Of a stretch of DNA of 4,771 nucleotides, positions 1 to 4,771 are shown piece by piece (position 1 is the first letter of the stretch; the number at the start of each line of letters is the position of its first letter). The DNA lies in IMG/VR virus record IMGVR_UViG_2703718827_000009, positions 1-4,771 of that record. The stretch is one strand, 5' to 3'. This DNA is from a virus. Lineage: Duplodnaviria > Heunggongvirae > Uroviricota > Caudoviricetes. Under the pieces are notes generated by a model. That model was not told the DNA's origin and did no database searches. It worked only from the letters and a program-made list of their open reading frames with translations. The position numbers and the translations under genes are program-made.

Positions 1-318
1 TCACACCATCCTGTCGTCTTCGATCGCACTGTTGATGAAGTACGTCACCCTTCCCAACACCTCGACCTCTTCCGCTGCCTCACCTTCTATCGCTTCGCCA
101 TCATCCGTGATTAATGCCCTTCCCCTGAGTTTCGCAAATTGTGTTCGACCGCCGGACAAGATCAATAGCACCTGCCCCTGCACTAACCGGGTAACCGGTT
201 CGATAACCGCAAACCCGGAAGACGTTTCCAGGATGCGGGTATCAATGCCCACACCACAGATGAGTTCCGGTGTCATCCGCTGAGACACGTAATCAGCAGC
301 CGGTGAAGGAAAGCCCAT
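1..318 (-). CDS. UmuD'-like (HumD-like) S24/LexA-family beta-barrel protein; N-terminus in window at 318, 3' end beyond the window edge
   Basis: The product begins M-GFPSPAADYVSQR, matching from memory the segment of E. coli UmuD that follows its RecA-mediated cleavage site (GFPSPAADYVEQR). Later segments (GQVLLILSGGRTQFAKLRGR; EVEVLGRVTYFI) align loosely with the UmuD C-terminal strands. An in-frame stop lies 17 codons upstream (372..370), so no N-terminal arm is encoded. Start ATG 318..316 has a strong SD GGGAGGG 7 nt upstream and overlaps the stop of the upstream ORF (TGATG). Confidence 0.6.
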   Translation of the reverse strand: MGFPSPAADYVSQRMTPELICGVGIDTRILETSSGFAVIEPVTRLVQGQVLLILSGGRTQFAKLRGRALITDDGEAIEGEAAEEVEVLGRVTYFINSAIEDDRMV

Positions 319-557
319 CAGTGAACCCTCCCCATGTTGCGCAGGATCCAGTAGTGATTGTCGGTTCCGTCAGTTGTCTTGTCGGTAAAATCTGGCTGGT
401 AGTACTTTATCCACTCGTTGGCGTCGGCCCGGGTGAAATGCCAGTGGACCTTTGCCAGCTCGCGGATAAAGTCTTCTGTGCGTAAGCACCGGTAGCCCTT
501 GGAGTTTAGCTGTATTGCGGCCACAAATGCGCTGTGAATGTCTGATTGGCGGGGCAT
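318..557 (-). CDS. Small hypothetical protein (79 aa from ATG at 557; the reading frame stays open up to 644), first gene of a putative SOS-regulated pair
   Basis: Open frame 644..318 in the ORF track. The internal ATG at 557 is preferred because the LexA box (572..591) would otherwise lie inside the coding sequence; an AAGAG purine tract sits about 8 nt upstream of it. Its stop is translationally coupled to the downstream UmuD'-like gene. I recognise no family for the product (MPRQSDIHSAFVAAIQLNSKGYRCLRTEDFIRELAKVHWHF...). Confidence 0.45.
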   Translation of the reverse strand: MPRQSDIHSAFVAAIQLNSKGYRCLRTEDFIRELAKVHWHFTRADANEWIKYYQPDFTDKTTDGTDNHYWILRNMGRVH

Positions 558-571
558 GATCTGCACTCTTT

Positions 572-591
572 TACTGTTTTTATATACAGTA
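572..591. promoter_or_regulatory. LexA (SOS) box, TACTGTTTTTATATACAGTA
   Basis: Palindromic CTGT-N8-ACAG with an AT-rich spacer, matching the gammaproteobacterial consensus TACTG(TA)5CAGTA at about 17-18 of 20 positions. It lies 15 nt upstream of the minus-strand ATG at 557 and about 7 nt upstream of a strong plus-strand SD (598..604), in a divergent intergenic region. Confidence 0.7.
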
Positions 592-615
592 GTTTTAAAG
601 GAGGTGCAGATCAAG

Positions 616-696
616 ATGGCTAGGCCTATCAATGGAGCAACCATGAGATTTAGCAGTTTGCGACCGCCGCTCCTCCCTCAAGCGAAACCACCGTGA
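616..696 (+). CDS. Candidate 26-aa small ORF (MARPINGATMRFSSLRPPLLPQAKPP) behind a near-perfect Shine-Dalgarno sequence; speculative
   Basis: AAGGAGGTG at 598..606 is a near-perfect anti-SD complement, followed after an 11-nt spacer by ATG 616 and an open frame to TGA 694..696. It sits directly downstream of the LexA box and upstream of, on the same strand as, the glycosyltransferase gene. The peptide is basic and Pro-rich with no recognisable family; it may equally be a chance ORF. Confidence 0.2.
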   Translation: MARPINGATMRFSSLRPPLLPQAKPP

Positions 697-702
697 TATA
701 TT
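694..702 (+). promoter_or_regulatory. Possible extended -10 element (TGaTATATT) for the glycosyltransferase gene
   Basis: TG at 694..695, one spacer base, then hexamer TATATT at 697..702 (5 of 6 matches to TATAAT). No good -35 is visible. It lies about 30 nt upstream of ATG 732, which has SD AAGGA at 720..724. Confidence 0.3.
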
Positions 703-731
703 TACGCCACACACACTATAAGGATCTTAAG

Positions 732-1913
732 ATGAAAGTTGCTGTTTTGATGATGCAAAAGGATGAGTACCGGCTTCTTGAGCCATGGATACTGCATCAT
801 GCTGAGCTTTTTGGCCTTGAAAATTTATACGTCTACGATAACGGGTCAGCAGATGAGCGATGCCTTAACATTCTTAAGGAATATTCGGGAAAAGGGATGA
901 ATGTCGTTTATGACAGAAGCACCTTTGATGATTTCAATACCAGACATATCTACTTCGTAGACAAATACGAAGAATTAAAGAATTATCATGGCTATGATTT
1001 TATGATGCCACTTGATTGTGATGAGTTTGTCGGCGTTGAATTTTCAAAGGGTAAGGTGTCGCTGTCTAAAAATGACGTGTTGAATGAATTATCAAAATAT
1101 ATAGAAACCGACGCCACATTTAAAATTAAATATACATATGGCAACCACCCGCTTAACCCCAAAGAATTTGCGTTAAGCCCTAAACCTGAGAAAGTGTTCT
1201 TCCCTAAATCAAGAATCACTGCGCTGGGTAATGGCTTCCATCGCGGTGAGGTTGAGTCAGGCCATCAAGTTGATACCGATATCATTTACCTTCATTTCCA
1301 TCATAAAAAATATGATGACTATATCGCCAGCGCCCGTAATAAACTGGAAGGTCTTGTTGACGTCAATGATATTGAGGCTCTGAAGGCATTCAAAGGGGCG
1401 GGACATCATTTAGTCAAAAAGTTCCTGATGACTCAGACTGAATATTACGATATGCATGCAGCTTCGAAATCTATCAACCCGTCTAAGTTCTTTATTATGG
1501 ATGGAGTTTATGAATACCTGAAGGGTATGGGGCTGAATCTGGAGCAAGCATTAACGGTTGAGCACGATGAAAGTAGAATAACGTGGCATGGTTACGTAGA
1601 CAGGGTAAGAGAAGAGGAAGCGTCATGCGTTTTCACAGGGTGGTGCGTGCCCACTGAGGGCGTTGAGCAGCAGTTCTTTAACTTACGCATAGGACAGGAG
1701 ATCCTGCCCGGTTTTCTGGAGGAAAAAATTCAGCGCTCAGATGTTGTAGCGAAGTTCCCAGATTACAATCTGGACTGCGGATATTTAGTGAGATTCTACG
1801 GATTAACCAAAGGTGCATTGCAGCGTAACGAGTGGGAATTTCATGTTACTGCCGGATGTAAAGGCACTGGTTCAAAACTCAACAGAAGGAAAACAGAGTC
1901 ATACTTCCAATAA
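732..1913 (+). CDS. GT-A fold glycosyltransferase (family-2-like, resembling the Glyco_tranf_2_4 type), 393 aa, with a C-terminal domain of unknown function
   Basis: The N-terminus MKVAVLMMQKDEYRLLEPWILHHAELFGLENLYVYDNGSADE follows the E-W..HH...G....Y.YDNGS.D pattern of GT-A enzymes, and a DxD-type motif PLDCDEF lies about 90 aa in. ATG 732 has a good SD (AAGGA, 7-nt spacer); the GTG at 693 listed in the ORF track has none. Stop TAA 1911..1913 is followed immediately by a strong terminator. No obvious transmembrane segment. The gene is visibly more AT-rich than its flanks. Confidence 0.65.
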   Translation: MKVAVLMMQKDEYRLLEPWILHHAELFGLENLYVYDNGSADERCLNILKEYSGKGMNVVYDRSTFDDFNTRHIYFVDKYEELKNYHGYDFMMPLDCDEFVGVEFSKGKVSLSKNDVLNELSKYIETDATFKIKYTYGNHPLNPKEFALSPKPEKVFFPKSRITALGNGFHRGEVESGHQVDTDIIYLHFHHKKYDDYIASARNKLEGLVDVNDIEALKAFKGAGHHLVKKFLMTQTEYYDMHAASKSINPSKFFIMDGVYEYLKGMGLNLEQALTVEHDESRITWHGYVDRVREEEASCVFTGWCVPTEGVEQQFFNLRIGQEILPGFLEEKIQRSDVVAKFPDYNLDCGYLVRFYGLTKGALQRNEWEFHVTAGCKGTGSKLNRRKTESYFQ

Positions 1914-1916
1914 AAT

Positions 1917-1940
1917 AAGGCGGGAAATCCCGCCTTTTTT
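1917..1940. terminator. Bidirectional rho-independent terminator between convergent transcription units
   Basis: GGCGGG (1919..1924) pairs with CCCGCC (1929..1934) around loop AAAT, followed by TTTTTT (1935..1940) on the plus strand. On the minus strand the same hairpin is followed by a U-rich tract (TTATTTTATT). It sits 3 nt after the glycosyltransferase stop and about 40 nt after the stop of the minus-strand 80-aa ORF. Confidence 0.75.
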
Positions 1941-1975
1941 ACCTTCCCATGCCTTAGAATTGCCATTATTTTCAG

Positions 1976-2218
1976 CTAGCAATCAATTGTCGCATAAGGA
2001 AGTTCTGTCTTCGCATGTTTATAGCACTGCTCGAAGATATTAGGACCAGCGAGGTCATAATCGCATTCCATTGTTTGACGGTCTATCTGTGCTTTTTCGC
2101 CGGTTATTGGATGGTCAATATACTGAATGAGATCGTATTGTGCACGGTACTTTCCGTGCACTCTTGGCAGTTCAACGCGAATATAAACAGATCCTTCATT
2201 ATCATTCGTCAGTGCCAT
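1976..2218 (-). CDS. Hypothetical small acidic protein, 80 aa; last gene of the tailspike operon
   Basis: ATG 2218..2216 is preceded by SD GAGGT with a 5-nt spacer; stop TAG at 1978..1976. The start overlaps the preceding small ORF by 17 nt. The product (MALTNDNEGSVYIRVELPRVHGKYRAQYDLIQYIDHPITGEKAQIDRQTMECDYDLAGPNIFEQCYKHAKTELPYATIDC) has balanced composition with no signal peptide or transmembrane segment, and I recognise no family. The antisense plus-strand ORF (2015..2245) has a low-complexity hydrophobic product and looks spurious. Confidence 0.5.
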   Translation of the reverse strand: MALTNDNEGSVYIRVELPRVHGKYRAQYDLIQYIDHPITGEKAQIDRQTMECDYDLAGPNIFEQCYKHAKTELPYATIDC

Positions 2219-2363
2219 TCTTTACCTCGTGAAGAGATTCGATAGGGCTATCTAATTCTGCCTGCAATGCATTCATTGAAGCATTAAAAGCAGGAACTTC
2301 ATGACCGCTAAGATTTACGCGAAGCATAAACTGCATGATATTCTGAATAGTTTGCTTATCCAT
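2202..2363 (-). CDS. Hypothetical small acidic protein, 53 aa, immediately downstream of the tailspike gene
   Basis: This ORF is not in the supplied track (too short); I translated it by hand as MDKQTIQNIMQFMLRVNLSGHEVPAFNASMNALQAELDSPIESLHEVKNGTDE. ATG 2363..2361 is preceded by SD CAGGAC with a 6-7-nt spacer, only 12 nt after the tailspike stop. Stop TGA at 2204..2202 lies inside the start of the next ORF (17-nt overlap), suggesting translational coupling. Confidence 0.45.
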   Translation of the reverse strand: MDKQTIQNIMQFMLRVNLSGHEVPAFNASMNALQAELDSPIESLHEVKNGTDE

Positions 2364-2375
2364 TTTATTGTCCTG

Positions 2376-3878
2376 TTAAGTTAAACCAATTAATCCATGC
2401 CCGGTTGAAGCATGTAAGTCCTGAATTAATGCTGCAACTACCTTTGCTAAATCTTCGTGAGTTATTGTACCAGAATTAAACGCAGCTCTGGAAGTTGTAC
2501 CAGTTGGAGAACCCCATCCAGTTTTCCTCCCAGAAAGAATTTGATTGCCATTAACTCTAACATTCAGGTTGTTAAAGTTAGCCCAGTTCTCCGTCCTGTT
2601 AAGGCTCAAGTATGTCGTATTTGCAGGGCCTGTTCCTACGACAATTCTTTGATTGTCACCCAGCAAAATTGCGCAGTTATTACTGAACCCAGATTCAGTT
2701 AGAGAAATACCCACTCGGAAATTTCCATTTCTGAATCGTATACCATTTGCAGCGTTTGATAAAATAGATCCTTCAAGGCGCACATACTCGCCATTACCAA
2801 CTACAGTAGGTGCCTCTGTTGGCGGTACAATTGAATCGCCCCTGAATAGCAAACCAGTCCATATATACCCGTTAGGCGCAGCCGAGCCTCTTCCGACGTT
2901 AATCATGTGGGTTACACGGTTACTGCCATCGGTAGTGGTACAGACCAGACCTCGCGTATTTCCTTCCAGCTCAGCGCCTACCATCCAACCCTTATCTATG
3001 CTGCATCCATTATTGAGGTTGAATTCATGAACAATTACTGATTTGGCCCCTGTATTTGCTCCTCCAGTGCCTGCATCTCCTGATACTGCGCCGTACGACC
3101 ACCCGCCCCAAGCTTCGGCATTAGCATGGCGAGCCTCCCCCCTGAAATGAGCACCAACTAATTGCCCCGTCCCTCCTTCATGCCTTGCAGCAAAGGTTGC
3201 GGCAGCGCCATAAGCTGAACCACCTTGCTTTTCAAGATAACCGTAAAAGCACCCCTGTTCCCAACGCGAGACACCATCATCACGAGTTGCATTGGACTTT
3301 TTTTCTATCCATTGAACTGGATCTGGCGTGTCTGTAAGGGGTACTGAATATCGTTGCCGCATGGCATTCGAATATTGGATTGTGTTGTTATTGTAGATGT
3401 TTACACCAGCAACATCAGACCCCGTCCAGCCGCCTCCACCATAAAGATCGTCAAGCCCTTTCCCGTCTTTACCTGCAAATAAAGACCTCAAAGAGGCATC
3501 CCCAACACTTACCCATGCTCCGAGCCCAATTCCACCAGTGGAAATAGGAGTAGAGCCAGCTGGAACTACTTTACCGCCAGGAGGAAGCGCACCATCCCAT
3601 CGATAATATTCACCAGTGCTTGTATCTCGTAAAACCTGATTATATAACTCAATAGTTGCGCCAGATTGAAAAGAATCTAATGTTATATATCCAAATGAGG
3701 AAATAGCAGAAGCAGCCATTTCCTCAATTCCATACCACGTCTTACGCTTCCTTCCAAAGCGGTCCTGCCAGAAGGTAGAGTTTAAGTCATTTATTGCAGA
3801 GTCAAAGTTTTGTGAGTTGTCATATAGATCGCGCGGGTCTACTGAGCCCGGCGGATTATTAGTGGCGTATTTGGTCAT
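2376..3878 (-). CDS. Phage tailspike / receptor-binding protein with a predicted parallel beta-helix (polysaccharide depolymerase-like) body, about 500 aa
   Basis: Long minus-strand ORF (track 2376..3893). The central and C-terminal parts are Gly/Asn/Thr/Ser-rich with short repeats of alternating hydrophobic residues and Asn/Gly turns (e.g. NGIRFRNGNFRVGISLTESGFSNNCAILLGDNQRIVVGTG; NLNVRVNGNQILSG), typical of tailspike beta-helices. It sits directly downstream of a large tail structural gene. Start ATG 3878 is preferred (SD GGAG, 5-nt spacer) over ATG 3893, which directly abuts a T-run with no SD. The specific family was not identified from memory. Confidence 0.6.
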   Translation of the reverse strand: MTKYATNNPPGSVDPRDLYDNSQNFDSAINDLNSTFWQDRFGRKRKTWYGIEEMAASAISSFGYITLDSFQSGATIELYNQVLRDTSTGEYYRWDGALPPGGKVVPAGSTPISTGGIGLGAWVSVGDASLRSLFAGKDGKGLDDLYGGGGWTGSDVAGVNIYNNNTIQYSNAMRQRYSVPLTDTPDPVQWIEKKSNATRDDGVSRWEQGCFYGYLEKQGGSAYGAAATFAARHEGGTGQLVGAHFRGEARHANAEAWGGWSYGAVSGDAGTGGANTGAKSVIVHEFNLNNGCSIDKGWMVGAELEGNTRGLVCTTTDGSNRVTHMINVGRGSAAPNGYIWTGLLFRGDSIVPPTEAPTVVGNGEYVRLEGSILSNAANGIRFRNGNFRVGISLTESGFSNNCAILLGDNQRIVVGTGPANTTYLSLNRTENWANFNNLNVRVNGNQILSGRKTGWGSPTGTTSRAAFNSGTITHEDLAKVVAALIQDLHASTGHGLIGLT

Positions 3879-3893
3879 GCTCGCTCCGGGCAT

Positions 3894-3914
3894 AAAAAAC
3901 CCGCCGTAGCGGGT
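3894..3914 (-). terminator. Hairpin plus T-run (intrinsic terminator or attenuator-like) between the upstream tail gene and the tailspike gene
   Basis: On the minus strand, ACCCGC-TACG-GCGGGT (6-bp GC-rich stem, 4-nt loop; 3914..3899) is followed by five or six T. It lies 20 nt after the stop of the upstream gene (3937..3935) and directly before the tailspike start region. Probably partial or read through by antiterminated late transcription. Confidence 0.45.
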
Positions 3915-3934
3915 CAGATAGTTTTGATTTGCTG

Positions 3935-4771
3935 TTAAGCGGCGTCACCGGGGTATGTGGCGTCGTCATAGGCATACTTTCCTGGGTGGTACTGGATGGC
4001 TGTTACCTGACTGATCCCGTCATTGCCTGGGGATATTTCCCCCACCAGTGCGTCATACGGCACACGGACAGACGAGCAGAACAGCAGGCGCGGCGGCTCA
4101 ATGTACGCATCGTTCATTGCCCATAATTCCGGCTCCAGCGCGGCGCTGTACGGCACCGAGATCGTGAAGTCGTCAATGCGAGTCGGCACCACCATGGCTG
4201 ATGCCCTGCCGTCCTGATGGCGGATAATTACGCGCGGGTTTTCAAACGACCAGTCCGGGGACTCACTGAGCGTCATAGTGATTTTGCTGCTGTCATATGT
4301 CATATCGGTAATCAGGCAACTCAGCGTCTGGCTGCCGGGGATGTCATCGGCCAGCACAATGCGATCCATGAACTCATAACAGAGCGCATCCATCTCTGTT
4401 GATGTGGTGTGCTGCAGGCGCTGAAGCTGGTAGCCCAGCAACCGGCGCATGCCGATGCGGTAAGCGCGGTCCTCGTCCAGAACGCCATCCAGCGTGTAGC
4501 TCTCGATTTTCACCGGCGTAGGGTTGCCAGGCAGGCGACACTGCACGGTCTCCTCTGCCCAGGTGGTACCGTTGATATACGTCACGTCCACGCCATCGTA
4601 ATCGTCCTGAGACGGGGCCTTAAACGCGGTCTGCAACTCCTCGGTGGTTTCCTGCGGGGTGATCATGCCTACCCAGGGTTTAATCCCTTCCCGGCCAGCA
4701 GACGCCAGCCCGTCAGACAGCAGGAAATACCCCATCCCCGCGTTGGTGATTTTCTGCAGCACCTCAAGTGC
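3935..4771 (-). CDS. C-terminal ~275 aa of a large phage tail structural protein (possibly central tail fibre or tail-tip, host-specificity type); 5' end beyond the window
   Basis: The minus-strand frame is open from the window edge (reads ...ALEVLQKITNAG...) to stop TAA 3937..3935. GC-rich with enteric-like codon usage (frequent CTG, GCG, CGC). It sits immediately upstream of the tailspike gene. I could not match it confidently to lambda J from memory, so the identity is inferred from position only. Confidence 0.5.
   Translation of the reverse strand, partial: ALEVLQKITNAGMGYFLLSDGLASAGREGIKPWVGMITPQETTEELQTAFKAPSQDDYDGVDVTYINGTTWAEETVQCRLPGNPTPVKIESYTLDGVLDEDRAYRIGMRRLLGYQLQRLQHTTSTEMDALCYEFMDRIVLADDIPGSQTLSCLITDMTYDSSKITMTLSESPDWSFENPRVIIRHQDGRASAMVVPTRIDDFTISVPYSAALEPELWAMNDAYIEPPRLLFCSSVRVPYDALVGEISPGNDGISQVTAIQYHPGKYAYDDATYPGDAA

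Follow-up and report, generated by a model that had tools for sequence, protein, structure and literature searches.

A tiny acidic protein encoded directly behind phage tail fibre and spike genes as a candidate spike-assembly helper

In phages lambda, P2 and Mu, proteins of the Tfa/gpG/gpU type (Pfam Caudo_TAP) are encoded directly downstream of the tail fibre genes, and Tfa-type proteins are about 175–200 aa long. Fibre trimers fold from the C-terminus and are aided by small separate proteins; T4 gp57A has only 79 aa, is absent from the virion and is needed for trimerisation of fibre proteins (PMC3004832). Modules consisting of a fibre and its chaperone are common to different phage families. 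For example, Alteromonas phage V22/A5 has a fibre that, together with the cognate chaperone encoded downstream, forms a module found across morphotypes, and the dependence on such “transient chaperone caps” differs between fibres (PMC10579305). Intramolecular C-terminal chaperone domains (Peptidase_S74 type), by contrast, belong to the fibre chain itself, from which they are removed by cleavage (PMC4690869). Here, we analysed a 4,771-nt stretch of a Caudoviricetes record (IMGVR_UViG_2703718827_000009, positions 1 to 4,771; hereafter, the window), in which two small ORFs, ORF1 and ORF2, follow a tailspike gene (Table 1).

Table 1. Features of the tailspike–ORF1–ORF2 unit and its convergent neighbour in the window.
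Feature	Position	Strand	Basis or remark
Tailspike gene, 505 aa	2376..3893	-	Sf11 gp13-like N-terminal adaptor, receptor-binding domain, C-terminal module
Conserved tailspike C-terminal module (last 55 codons) ...RKTGWGSPTGTTSRAAF...LAKVVAALIQDLHASTGHGLIGLT	2379..2543	-	
Spacer between tailspike stop and ORF1 start, 12 nt, containing Shine-Dalgarno AGGA	2364..2375	-	Read from the sequence
ORF1, 53 aa, acidic	2202..2363	-	Homologues, dN/dS, AlphaFold model
Conserved core of ORF1, aa 1–38, invariant motif F..RV.L.G.EVPAF	2250..2363	-	Homologue alignments
ORF2, 80 aa, acidic, motif C.Y.L.G.N.FEQCY and C-terminal ...DC	1976..2218	-	
Bidirectional terminator-like hairpin, ending the spike–ORF1–ORF2 unit and the convergent GT2 gene	1917..1936	both	
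GT2 glycosyltransferase gene, convergent, adjoining the module	732..1913	+	Low GC, as in the module

The layout described in a first-pass annotation of this DNA was borne out: two tiny ORFs are present behind the tailspike on the minus strand (53 and 80 aa), and the 12-nt gap, the separate Shine-Dalgarno sequences and the 17-nt overlap can all be read from the sequence. The ATG of ORF1, 12 nt 3′ of the tailspike TAA, has AGGA upstream at a spacing of 7 nt, and the ATG of ORF2 follows GAGG at a spacing of 6 nt; in the overlap (2202–2218), the two genes use different frames. The terminator claimed at the module end corresponds to a hairpin located 39 nt past the ORF2 stop, with an 8-bp stem (6 GC), a 4-nt loop and T-runs on both strands, which makes it terminator-like in either direction. 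No terminator was found between the spike and ORF1/ORF2, and no promoter-like site was found upstream of ORF1. The late tail operon would end with ORF1 and ORF2, transcribed together with the tailspike, and their translation may be coupled to that of the tailspike. The ORFs had also been described as more AT-rich than the tailspike, which was only partly the case: overall GC is slightly lower (0.395 and 0.428 versus 0.466), but GC3 is the same (0.35–0.38 versus 0.36). Given this match in GC3 and a main compositional break that separates the TipJ gene (GC 0.585) from the tailspike, ORF1 and ORF2 share the composition of the tailspike and form no separate island, and AT-richness loses its value as a sign of foreign origin.

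ORF1 and ORF2 are real genes and not chance ORFs. The ORF1 family comprised 31 close clusters and grew to 261 with a profile search, all 42–77 aa long and unnamed, and homologues of both ORF1 and ORF2 kept their length down to 64% identity. As judged from the substitution pattern, both genes evolve under purifying selection, with dN/dS pairs of 0.071/0.377 and 0.158/1.10 for ORF1 (ratio about 0.1–0.2) and a dN of 0.046 against a dS of 0.30 for ORF2 (dN 0.08–0.11 where dS was saturated). Two other ways of reading the DNA were rejected, namely a single frameshifted gene (every homologue has ORF1 and ORF2 as two ORFs, each with conservation in its own frame) and a gene on the opposite strand (antisense ORF 2015–2245, +; the substitutions fit the minus-strand frames). 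The motif F..RV.L.G.EVPAF of ORF1 was retained in homologues on contigs with a GC of 0.34 to 0.62. The tail past residue 38 varied with the identity of the next gene, and mosaic break-points were located inside ORF1 after codon 38. The AlphaFold monomer of ORF1 was predicted to be a helical hairpin (residues 3–16 and 24–38) with a disordered C-terminal tail (pLDDT 81–89 over residues 1–40). Both proteins are acidic, as previously claimed (pI 4.65 for ORF1 and 4.95 for ORF2), and the claimed absence of transmembrane segments agreed with Kyte-Doolittle profiles over 19 residues, in which neither protein had a hydrophobic stretch (maximum 0.38 for ORF1 and −0.25 for ORF2).

The first-pass annotation recognised no family for either protein, and profile and fold searches (Pfam, NCBIfam, PHROGs, PADLOC and PDB) likewise identified neither. 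In Pfam at E up to 1, ORF1 matched only NET2A_C (E 0.018, below the cut-off), ORF2 had no match, and Caudo_TAP was found for neither. PHROGs matches were confined to families of unknown function, none annotated as fibre assembly or chaperone, among them a weak match of ORF1 to phrog_18977 (E 4.4e-4), and PDB profile searches with both proteins returned nothing significant. Neither protein had sequence or fold similarity to known fibre chaperones (Caudo_TAP/Tfa, gp38, gp57A-type PHROGs and S74), and no Peptidase_S74 match was found in the spike, ORF1 or ORF2 in Pfam and PDB searches. The analogues of ORF1 and ORF2 described below yielded only weak or unknown-function matches in Pfam, PHROGs, NCBIfam and PADLOC. 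Furthermore, Rfam found nothing relevant in the whole window, a scan of species-representative genomes with the ORF1 and ORF2 families gave no relative, megablast of the region against phage records gave no match, and these small genes were not described in the literature searched. Conserved motifs have been published that flank the receptor-binding domains of lytic E. coli phages, but those elements are different ones (PMC10408124).

In the loci read, ORF1 lies directly 3′ of a tail fibre or spike gene wherever the upstream gene was identifiable, and it was found in this position in at least 12 phage lineages. The gap between the two genes was −14 to +26 nt in nearly all loci and 40 nt in Phapecoctavirus nieznany and tuntematon (L031), where the 3′ end of the fibre gene is frameshifted; the ORF1 of a marine clade lies behind a 114-aa ORF within the fibre cluster. 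Phages that carry ORF1 included E. coli TipJ-type prophages (the window, L002, L005, L006 and L014), P22-like prophages (L001, L003 and L004), the virulent Kagunavirus LM02P1 (L034), a P2/HP1-like myophage (L039), unrelated metagenomic phages with a GC of 0.34–0.62 (L015, L027–L030, L092, L095 and L107) and Aeromonas phage AsC4_1 (L032), which its authors called virulent (PMC12184794). In AsC4_1 and L038, the small genes are flanked by the spike on one side and a minor tail protein on the other. The myophage has the order Baseplate_J, Tail_P2_I, H-type fibre, ORF1, ORF2 and HP1_ORF34 baseplate protein, and no Caudo_TAP protein was found in this locus. In P2-like phages, the fibre-assembly gene sits precisely where this myophage has ORF1 and ORF2. 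This gene order and the location directly behind fibre and spike genes agree with the earlier claim that the ORFs occupy the position of fibre-assembly genes.

An exchanged receptor-binding cassette was seen in LM02P1. Compared with its relatives AV104 and Bas72, homology is lost at about spike residue 55 and returns 15–19 nt past the ORF1 stop, and Bas72 has no gene after the spike; ORF1 thus lies within the exchanged cassette, near its end. Among 50,697 phage records, those with ORF1 (7 records, 5 phages) are those with a type-B fibre C-terminus, and those with ORF2 are those with a type-C fibre C-terminus. The combination of spike C-terminus and ORF1 is common to podo-, sipho- and myophages. 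Whether the ORFs travel with this spike type had been raised as a point to check, and the outcome favours movement of ORF1 together with fibre and spike genes, given its place behind them in these lineages and inside the LM02P1 cassette. The linkage of ORF1 to fibre and spike genes is tight and widespread; its position is kept down to ca. 50% ORF1 identity and over a GC of 0.34–0.62, which implies long-term linkage and not recent co-transfer. Linkage by itself cannot tell a functional partner from a passenger gene in a recombination unit.

The tailspike matched Pfam Tail_spike_N (E 3.7e-19), and its residues 9–172 matched PDB 9occ_G (E 6.8e-36), the structure of the Shigella phage Sf11 gp13 adaptor (PMC12724387). 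Residues 135–505 were 68% identical to a P22-like prophage spike, and P22-like prophage spikes carry a head-binding N-terminus in place of the adaptor. In three E. coli genomes, the last 75 nt of the spike and the first 114 nt of ORF1 were 97.5–98% identical to the window with different flanks. Most of the fibres and spikes upstream of ORF1 share the C-terminal module; its variants, all with ...HGLIxxT at their end, were found in loci L006, L007, L011, L014, L015, L024, L027–L030, L032, L034, L038, L039 and L095. Strict dependence of this fibre module on ORF1 was rejected on the basis of 24 viral contigs in which a type-C ...HGLIAT fibre end is followed by at least 800 nt: 18 of them carry none of the four small-gene families. 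ORF1 homologues also occur behind fibres without the HGLI end (the marine clade and L107), and conservation is higher in the ORF1 core than in the fibre module, which would also fit a conserved partner other than the fibre.

ORF2 is the variable member. It formed 29 close clusters (80–81 aa), and when 1.84 billion proteins were searched exhaustively with HMMER, only nine representatives were found. In the loci read, it always lies within two genes of a fibre gene, adjoining ORF1 or alt-ORF1; it is broken in L011, only its last 30 codons are left in L012 and L013, and phage AS2 has the opposite order, in which alt-ORF1 follows ORF2. The two-gene module of the first-pass description is not a fixed pair, given that ORF2 may be absent, replaced (ORF2′), decayed or joined by other small genes. 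ORF2 is rare, optional, replaceable and sometimes decayed, and ORF1 is the constant element. In profile-profile comparison, neither ORF1 and alt-ORF1 nor ORF2 and ORF2′ showed homology to each other, and they were therefore treated as analogues and not as relatives. The AlphaFold monomer of ORF2 was predicted to contain three beta strands, a helix and a short strand (pLDDT 72). A zinc site formed by His36, Cys52, Cys65 and Cys80 was considered and rejected, as His36 and some of the cysteines are lost in distant homologues.

The evidence leans towards the reading based on chaperone position, without proving it. We consider it somewhat probable (ca. 55%) that the spike is co-expressed with ORF1 and ORF2 as its accessory proteins and that ORF1 serves as an assembly factor or cap at the C-terminal end of the spike; ORF1 is most likely a new, tiny spike-assembly helper and not a toxin or anti-defence gene. 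ORF1, an acidic hairpin of roughly 6 kDa with predicted helices and an almost invariant L.G.EVPAF turn, would be the constant partner and would act on the C-terminal module of the tailspike, in which an amphipathic helix is followed by HGLI. Acting in trans as a small assembly factor or as a transient cap, it could bring the three chains into register or shield them while the trimer folds from the C-terminus. ORF2, with a predicted beta-beta-beta-alpha-beta mini-domain of roughly 9 kDa and conserved cysteines, might be a second, dispensable accessory that works beside ORF1 or a non-homologous ORF1 analogue. We infer contact with the spike, a chaperone or cap activity of ORF1 and any role of ORF2.

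Alternatively, ORF1 and ORF2 might be passengers with host-directed functions (anti-defence, DNA mimicry or host takeover) that hitch-hike in a recombining receptor-binding segment, a possibility that we regard as doubtful. Both proteins are small, acidic, soluble and unlike any chaperone, and accessory genes are known to occur in the region behind fibre genes; convergent glycan-modifying genes and the small membrane protein phrog_1443 are also present at these loci. However, the ORFs stand at the end of a late structural operon without a promoter of their own, which would be too late for a counter-defence needed at entry. The break-points inside ORF1 past codon 38 and the frequent occurrence of the fibre module without ORF1 suit cargo, whereas a position that is constant over very divergent lineages (ORF1 identity down to ca. 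50%, GC 0.34–0.62) and lies within the tail modules of virulent phages with compact genomes does not. No known Acr, Ocr or Ard family or solved structure matched either protein: the closest solved anti-CRISPR, AcrIC5, was not significant (E 0.23), PADLOC returned nothing meaningful, and no HTH (aca-like) gene adjoins ORF1 or ORF2. The extreme conservation of the ORF1 core across hosts would fit a conserved host target. A further reading, in which ORF1 (with ORF2 optional) has a host-directed function other than assembly and was selected to travel in receptor-binding cassettes, seems improbable. Under it, one recombination event would provide both a new adsorption specificity and a factor for the newly accessible host, for example if the invariant GQEVPAF turn served to neutralise a conserved host protein, and such linked host-range determinants would represent a new principle in podo-, sipho- and myophages. 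Even as host-directed cargo, the strict link to host-range cassettes would be a new observation in itself.

The two remaining readings are unlikely. A toxin–antitoxin or superinfection-exclusion pair guarding the lysogen, with ORF1 as the antitoxin and ORF2 as the toxin, appears very improbable. The overlap of a small gene with a larger one that follows it resembles a type II operon, ORF1 is found alone while ORF2 was never seen without ORF1 or alt-ORF1, and ORF1 combines a folded N-terminal part with a disordered acidic tail that varies with the downstream gene. Nevertheless, ORF2 is acidic (pI 4.95) and belongs to no toxin family, ORF1 belongs to no antitoxin or DNA-binding family, and searches for toxin and antitoxin families (Pfam, NCBIfam and PADLOC) gave no match to either, with non-specific results in fold searches. 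Members also occur in virulent phages within tail gene clusters, there is no separate promoter for expression in the lysogen, the context of ORF1 is fibre genes instead of varied, and the reversed order in AS2 does not fit. The decay of ORF2 beside an intact ORF1 is the opposite of antidote loss, yet compatible with toxin loss; for exclusion, neither protein has the membrane segment needed for action at the envelope. Scarcely credible is a role as serotype-conversion helpers, in which ORF1 and ORF2 would regulate or join GT2 in O-antigen modification. GT2 adjoins the module with a similarly low GC, spike, ORF1, ORF2 and GT2 occur together in L001, L002, L004, L005 and L007, and convergent glycan-modifying genes follow ORF1 in unrelated loci as well. 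Yet GT2 is a separate unit on the opposite strand, and ORF1 and ORF2 are kept without it in L006, L014, L019–L022, L024, L032, L038 and L039, as is ORF1 alone (e.g., L034); virulent phages have ORF1 without any such enzyme. The moron-type functions that the first-pass annotation had listed (toxin–antitoxin, superinfection exclusion and anti-defence) are disfavoured overall by the occurrence in virulent phages and tail clusters, the lack of an own promoter and the coupling to late genes.

Swaps of receptor-binding domains occur naturally and are also used in engineered phages, tailocins and diagnostic spikes, and such exchanges frequently fail if a helper gene that went unrecognised stays behind. 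If the role in spike assembly is correct, ORF1, with roughly 50 aa, would be among the smallest known trans-acting assembly factors or caps, and the spike C-terminal module plus this mini-gene would form a portable unit, functional on three tail morphotypes; ORF1 would then have to be included by annotation pipelines and in the design of cassettes. Four hypothetical mini-protein families that are blank in current databases now have names and testable roles.

Among the known systems, ORF1 resembles T4 gp57A in being a very small separate protein; ORF1 is encoded with a trimeric receptor-binding protein and is soluble and, according to the model, a helical hairpin. The gp57A gene, however, is not known to adjoin the fibre genes that it serves. 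ORF1 contains Phe, Pro and His, whereas gp57A has no aromatic residues and no Pro; in searches for similarity to gp57A, no chaperone PHROG was matched, and PDB sequence and fold searches gave nothing significant. Proteins of the Tfa/gpG/gpU type share the gene position, as ORF1 also lies directly after the fibre and is co-transferred with its C-terminal part, but the Tfa-type proteins are three to four times the size of ORF1 and the families are unrelated. The V22/A5 chaperones are described as resembling intramolecular chaperone domains, whereas the ORF1 model is a helical hairpin, and no sequence or fold relation to them was detected; what the two systems share is a module that crosses morphotypes (here, the spike C-terminus and ORF1). 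Dependence on the chaperone differs between fibres in that system, and here the fibre module is also found without ORF1. Finally, Peptidase_S74-type domains (T5 pb1 and K1F endosialidase) exemplify a C-terminal element that nucleates trimer folding, as proposed here for the spike, with the difference that the S74-type domain is part of the fibre chain and the ORF1 candidate is a separate gene.

The window represents the tail end of an E. coli prophage whose late genes lie on the minus strand; its features and those of related loci are collected in the table. The prediction of the 505-aa product as a tailspike is solid, and its residues 9–172 match gp13 of the Shigella siphophage Sf11 (PDB 9occ_G, E 6.8e-36), the N-terminus of which attaches the spike to the distal tail protein (PMC12724387). 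The UmuD-like and phrog_3893 genes abut at position 318; this pair adjoins the prophage end or an integrase in two related loci (L001, L002) and is found together with the cassette in many others.

Features of the window and of related loci (L handles)
Sequence	Feature	Coordinates	Strand	Match
Window	UmuD-like gene	1-318	minus	phrog_3469, E 4.5e-45
Window	Small gene, 80 aa	318-560	minus	phrog_3893
Window	Family-2 glycosyltransferase (GT2), convergent	732-1913	plus	Pfam Glyco_tranf_2_4, E 4e-9
Window	Bidirectional hairpin terminator	1917-1936		
Window	ORF2, 80 aa	1976-2218	minus	
Window	ORF1, 53 aa	2202-2363	minus	
Window	Tailspike, 505 aa	2376-3893	minus	Pfam Tail_spike_N, E 3.7e-19
Window	43-nt stretch	3883-3925		Erwinia phage Midgardsormr38, 93% identity
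Window	Terminator-like hairpin	3898-3915	minus	
Window	TipJ-type host-specificity protein, C-terminus	3935-4762	minus	phrog_23466, phrog_469
L001	Spike ORF, 478 aa	12477-13913		
L003	Spike ORF, 478 aa	6130-7566		
L081 (AV104)	Spike gene and 105-aa gene	1318-3118		
L031 (nieznany)	Fibre gene	3602-5433		
L035 (Mwe-JY08)	980-aa protein	1139-4081		
L028	Glycan-modifying, convergent	5162-5866		
L029	Glycan-modifying, convergent	5519-7873		
L030	Glycan-modifying, convergent	5503-6947		
L039	Small membrane protein	4499-4723		phrog_1443
L014	Small membrane protein	6344-6694		phrog_1443
L011	Small membrane protein	3973-4266		phrog_1443

The features described in the first-pass annotation are all present: ORF1 follows the tailspike after a 12-nt spacer (TAAcAGGAcaataaaATG), the start region of ORF2 is GAGGtaaagaATG, the two ORFs overlap by 17 nt, and a terminator comes next, which we place 39 nt past the ORF2 stop. 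Both products are acidic (pI 4.65 for ORF1, 4.95 for ORF2) and have no hydrophobic segment. Homologues formed 31 clusters for ORF1 and 29 for ORF2 (80–81 aa, identity down to 64%); dN/dS was 0.071/0.377 and 0.158/1.10 for ORF1 and 0.046/0.303 for ORF2, with a dN of 0.08–0.11 where dS was saturated. Both are genuine genes. Their proposed AT-richness was slight in overall GC (0.395 and 0.428 vs. 0.466 in the spike) and absent at third codon positions, where GC3 equalled that of the spike. A sharp break at 3893/3935 separates the TipJ C-terminus (GC 0.585, GC3 0.73) from the spike, ORF1, ORF2 and GT2 (GC 0.40–0.47, GC3 0.35–0.44); therefore, both ORFs compositionally go with the spike. The entire right-hand block appears to have been imported as a cassette. 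A terminator-like hairpin separates the TipJ stop from the spike start, and its T-run extends to the spike start codon. The 43-nt stretch around it resembles an unannotated intergenic stretch of Midgardsormr38, the sole megablast match that the window gave in the phage collection. This element may serve as an attenuator, or as a recombination linker on the cassette's left side.

The evidence on ORF1 comes chiefly from the synteny of related loci, approximately 60 of which were read. In many contexts, its homologues begin −14 to +26 nt past the end of a tail fibre or spike gene. These contexts are TipJ-type siphoprophages (the window, L002, L005, L006 and L014), P22-like prophages (L001, L003 and L004), Kagunavirus LM02P1 (L034), Aeromonas phage AsC4_1 (L032), described as virulent (PMC12184794), a P2/HP1-like myophage (L039), and unrelated metagenomic phages with GC of 0.34–0.62 (L015, L027–L030, L092, L095 and L107). 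The P22-like spikes have a head-binding N-terminus but the receptor-binding domain and C-terminus of the window's spike; in the E. coli prophages L001 and L003, the spike ORF combining these domains is intact, and only its first ~120 codons are annotated in RefSeq, as an ‘incomplete’ pseudogene, probably an annotation artefact. In Phapecoctavirus nieznany and tuntematon (L031), the gap is 40 nt and the fibre 3′ end appears frameshifted, the gene of Escherichia phage nieznany matching the C-terminal module in two pieces. In a marine clade (L016, L036, L090–L106), ORF1 lies behind a 114-aa ORF within the fibre cluster.

The receptor-binding parts of spikes upstream of ORF1 were as low as 25%–32% identical, and most of these fibres and spikes nevertheless share a C-terminal module in one variant or another, ...(R/Q)QTG...TGT...L..LA...AL..HGLIxxT. 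The genes of the myophage locus L039 run Baseplate_J, Tail_P2_I, H-type fibre, ORF1, ORF2 and further baseplate genes, and no Caudo_TAP protein was found there; thus, the small genes stand where a fibre-assembly gene classically lies, in agreement with the position proposed at first pass. The spike gene and the gene for a minor tail protein flank them in AsC4_1 and L038. Between LM02P1 and its relatives AV104 and Bas72, homology stops at about spike residue 55 and returns 15–19 nt past the ORF1 stop, and Bas72 has no gene behind its spike. In this member of a virulent genus, ORF1 therefore belongs to the exchanged receptor-binding cassette. In Escherichia phage AV104, a gene of 105 aa begins 10 nt past the annotated 490-aa spike gene; its sequence appears to continue the spike, which may be split or frameshifted.

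Across 50,697 phage records, the ORF1-bearing set was the set with a type-B fibre C-terminus and the ORF2-bearing set was that with a type-C C-terminus. The link is nevertheless one-directional. Type-C ends (...HGLIAT) are widespread in contigs with GC of 0.36–0.75, and 18 of the 24 such contigs with enough downstream sequence had none of the four small-gene families, so the rule that a type-C end requires ORF1 fails; moreover, some ORF1 homologues sit behind fibres with other C-termini. ORF1 thus occurs in fibre clusters, nearly always directly after the fibre or spike. In a 980-aa protein of Microcystis phage Mwe-JY08, the module is internal (...LAQLARRVGAIWAALHAETGTHGILGPS) and is followed by ~30 mostly proline residues and a domain of ~450 aa; it can therefore form a junction as well as a terminus.

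The two-gene module originally proposed is not a fixed pair. ORF1 occurs alone (L034, L015, L027–L030), with ORF2, with ORF2′ (L003, L031), an unrelated gene of 68–90 aa with the motif GW..GFY.KPN, or with both (L032). A non-homologous alt-ORF1 (64–75 aa) takes its place in L019–L022 and L033. No relation between ORF1 and alt-ORF1, or between ORF2 and ORF2′, emerged with hhalign. Among the ~60 loci, ORF2 was never seen without an adjoining ORF1 or alt-ORF1; it is frameshifted in L011, and only its final 30 codons remain in L012 and L013, with ORF1 intact. The 90-aa ORF2′ of nieznany ends in ...PPYAATSIDC, resembling the ...LPYATIDC of ORF2 and suggesting that the two families have recombined or that the C-terminal peptide is functional. 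As a whole, the arrangement is rare (7/5,426 complete E. coli genomes) and was absent from the species-representative genomes scanned.

Searches of Pfam, NCBIfam and PADLOC placed neither protein, and the only recurring matches were weak ones to two uncharacterised PHROGs (phrog_18977 for ORF1, phrog_18037 for ORF2), consistent with the initial failure to recognise a family. The ORF2 profile retrieved nine representatives among 1.84 billion proteins in an exhaustive HMMER search, and the ORF1 profile 261 clusters; members in the 120 clusters listed are 42–77 aa long, unnamed and without Pfam domains. AlphaFold predicted a helical hairpin (residues 3–16 and 24–38; pLDDT 81–89) with a disordered tail for ORF1, and three long beta strands, a helix and a short strand for ORF2 (pLDDT 72); fold searches with these models gave generic matches only. 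The ORF1 core F..RV.L.G.EVPAF is invariant in the protein alignment (A3) and almost unchanged in remoter homologues, and the tail past residue 38 is variable. ORF2 keeps C.Y.L.G.N.FEQCY and usually ends in ...DC.

Other genes recur beside these cassettes. GT2 has a low GC (0.418), abuts the ORF1/ORF2 module and shares its terminator. Convergent glycan-modifying genes (TylF methyltransferase; Glyco_transf_61 with ATPgrasp_TupA; DUF1796) directly follow the ORF1 homologue in three unrelated contigs; these genes and GT2 look like serotype-conversion cargo lodged beside the receptor-binding cassette. Small membrane proteins of one family (phrog_1443, E 1.4e-30; motif REHTQAEYRWI...GKRANMPWWGGFDWRVW) adjoin the cassettes of three different phage types.

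The best-supported explanation, to which we assign a probability of roughly 0.55, is that ORF1 and ORF2 serve the receptor-binding cassette as accessory proteins. Translational coupling at the late operon's end would tie their synthesis to that of the spike, with ORF1 as a tiny assembly factor working in trans, or a transient cap, for the C-terminal end of the spike and ORF2 as an optional second accessory; we infer both the interaction with the spike and the activity. Passenger genes carried inside the recombining segment and acting on the host, for example in anti-defence, are a less likely explanation, given their late expression without a promoter and long-conserved position. A toxin–antitoxin or exclusion pair is very improbable: ORF2 is acidic, no toxin or antitoxin family was matched, the ORFs are present within tail clusters of virulent phages, and their order is reversed in phage AS2. 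That they help the GT2 enzyme is harder still to credit, because most loci keeping the ORFs are without GT2. The finding is chiefly of practical value, because swaps of receptor-binding cassettes may need ORF1 too.

The favoured reading has precedents. Fibre trimers fold from the C-terminus, aided by separate small proteins, among them T4 gp57A, a 79-aa helper absent from the virion (PMC3004832). Fibre-plus-chaperone modules are common to several phage families, and chaperone dependence varies (PMC10579305). Helper genes behind fibre genes are already known as a kind; the families described here are unnamed, unusually small and modular, and occur across three tail morphotypes.
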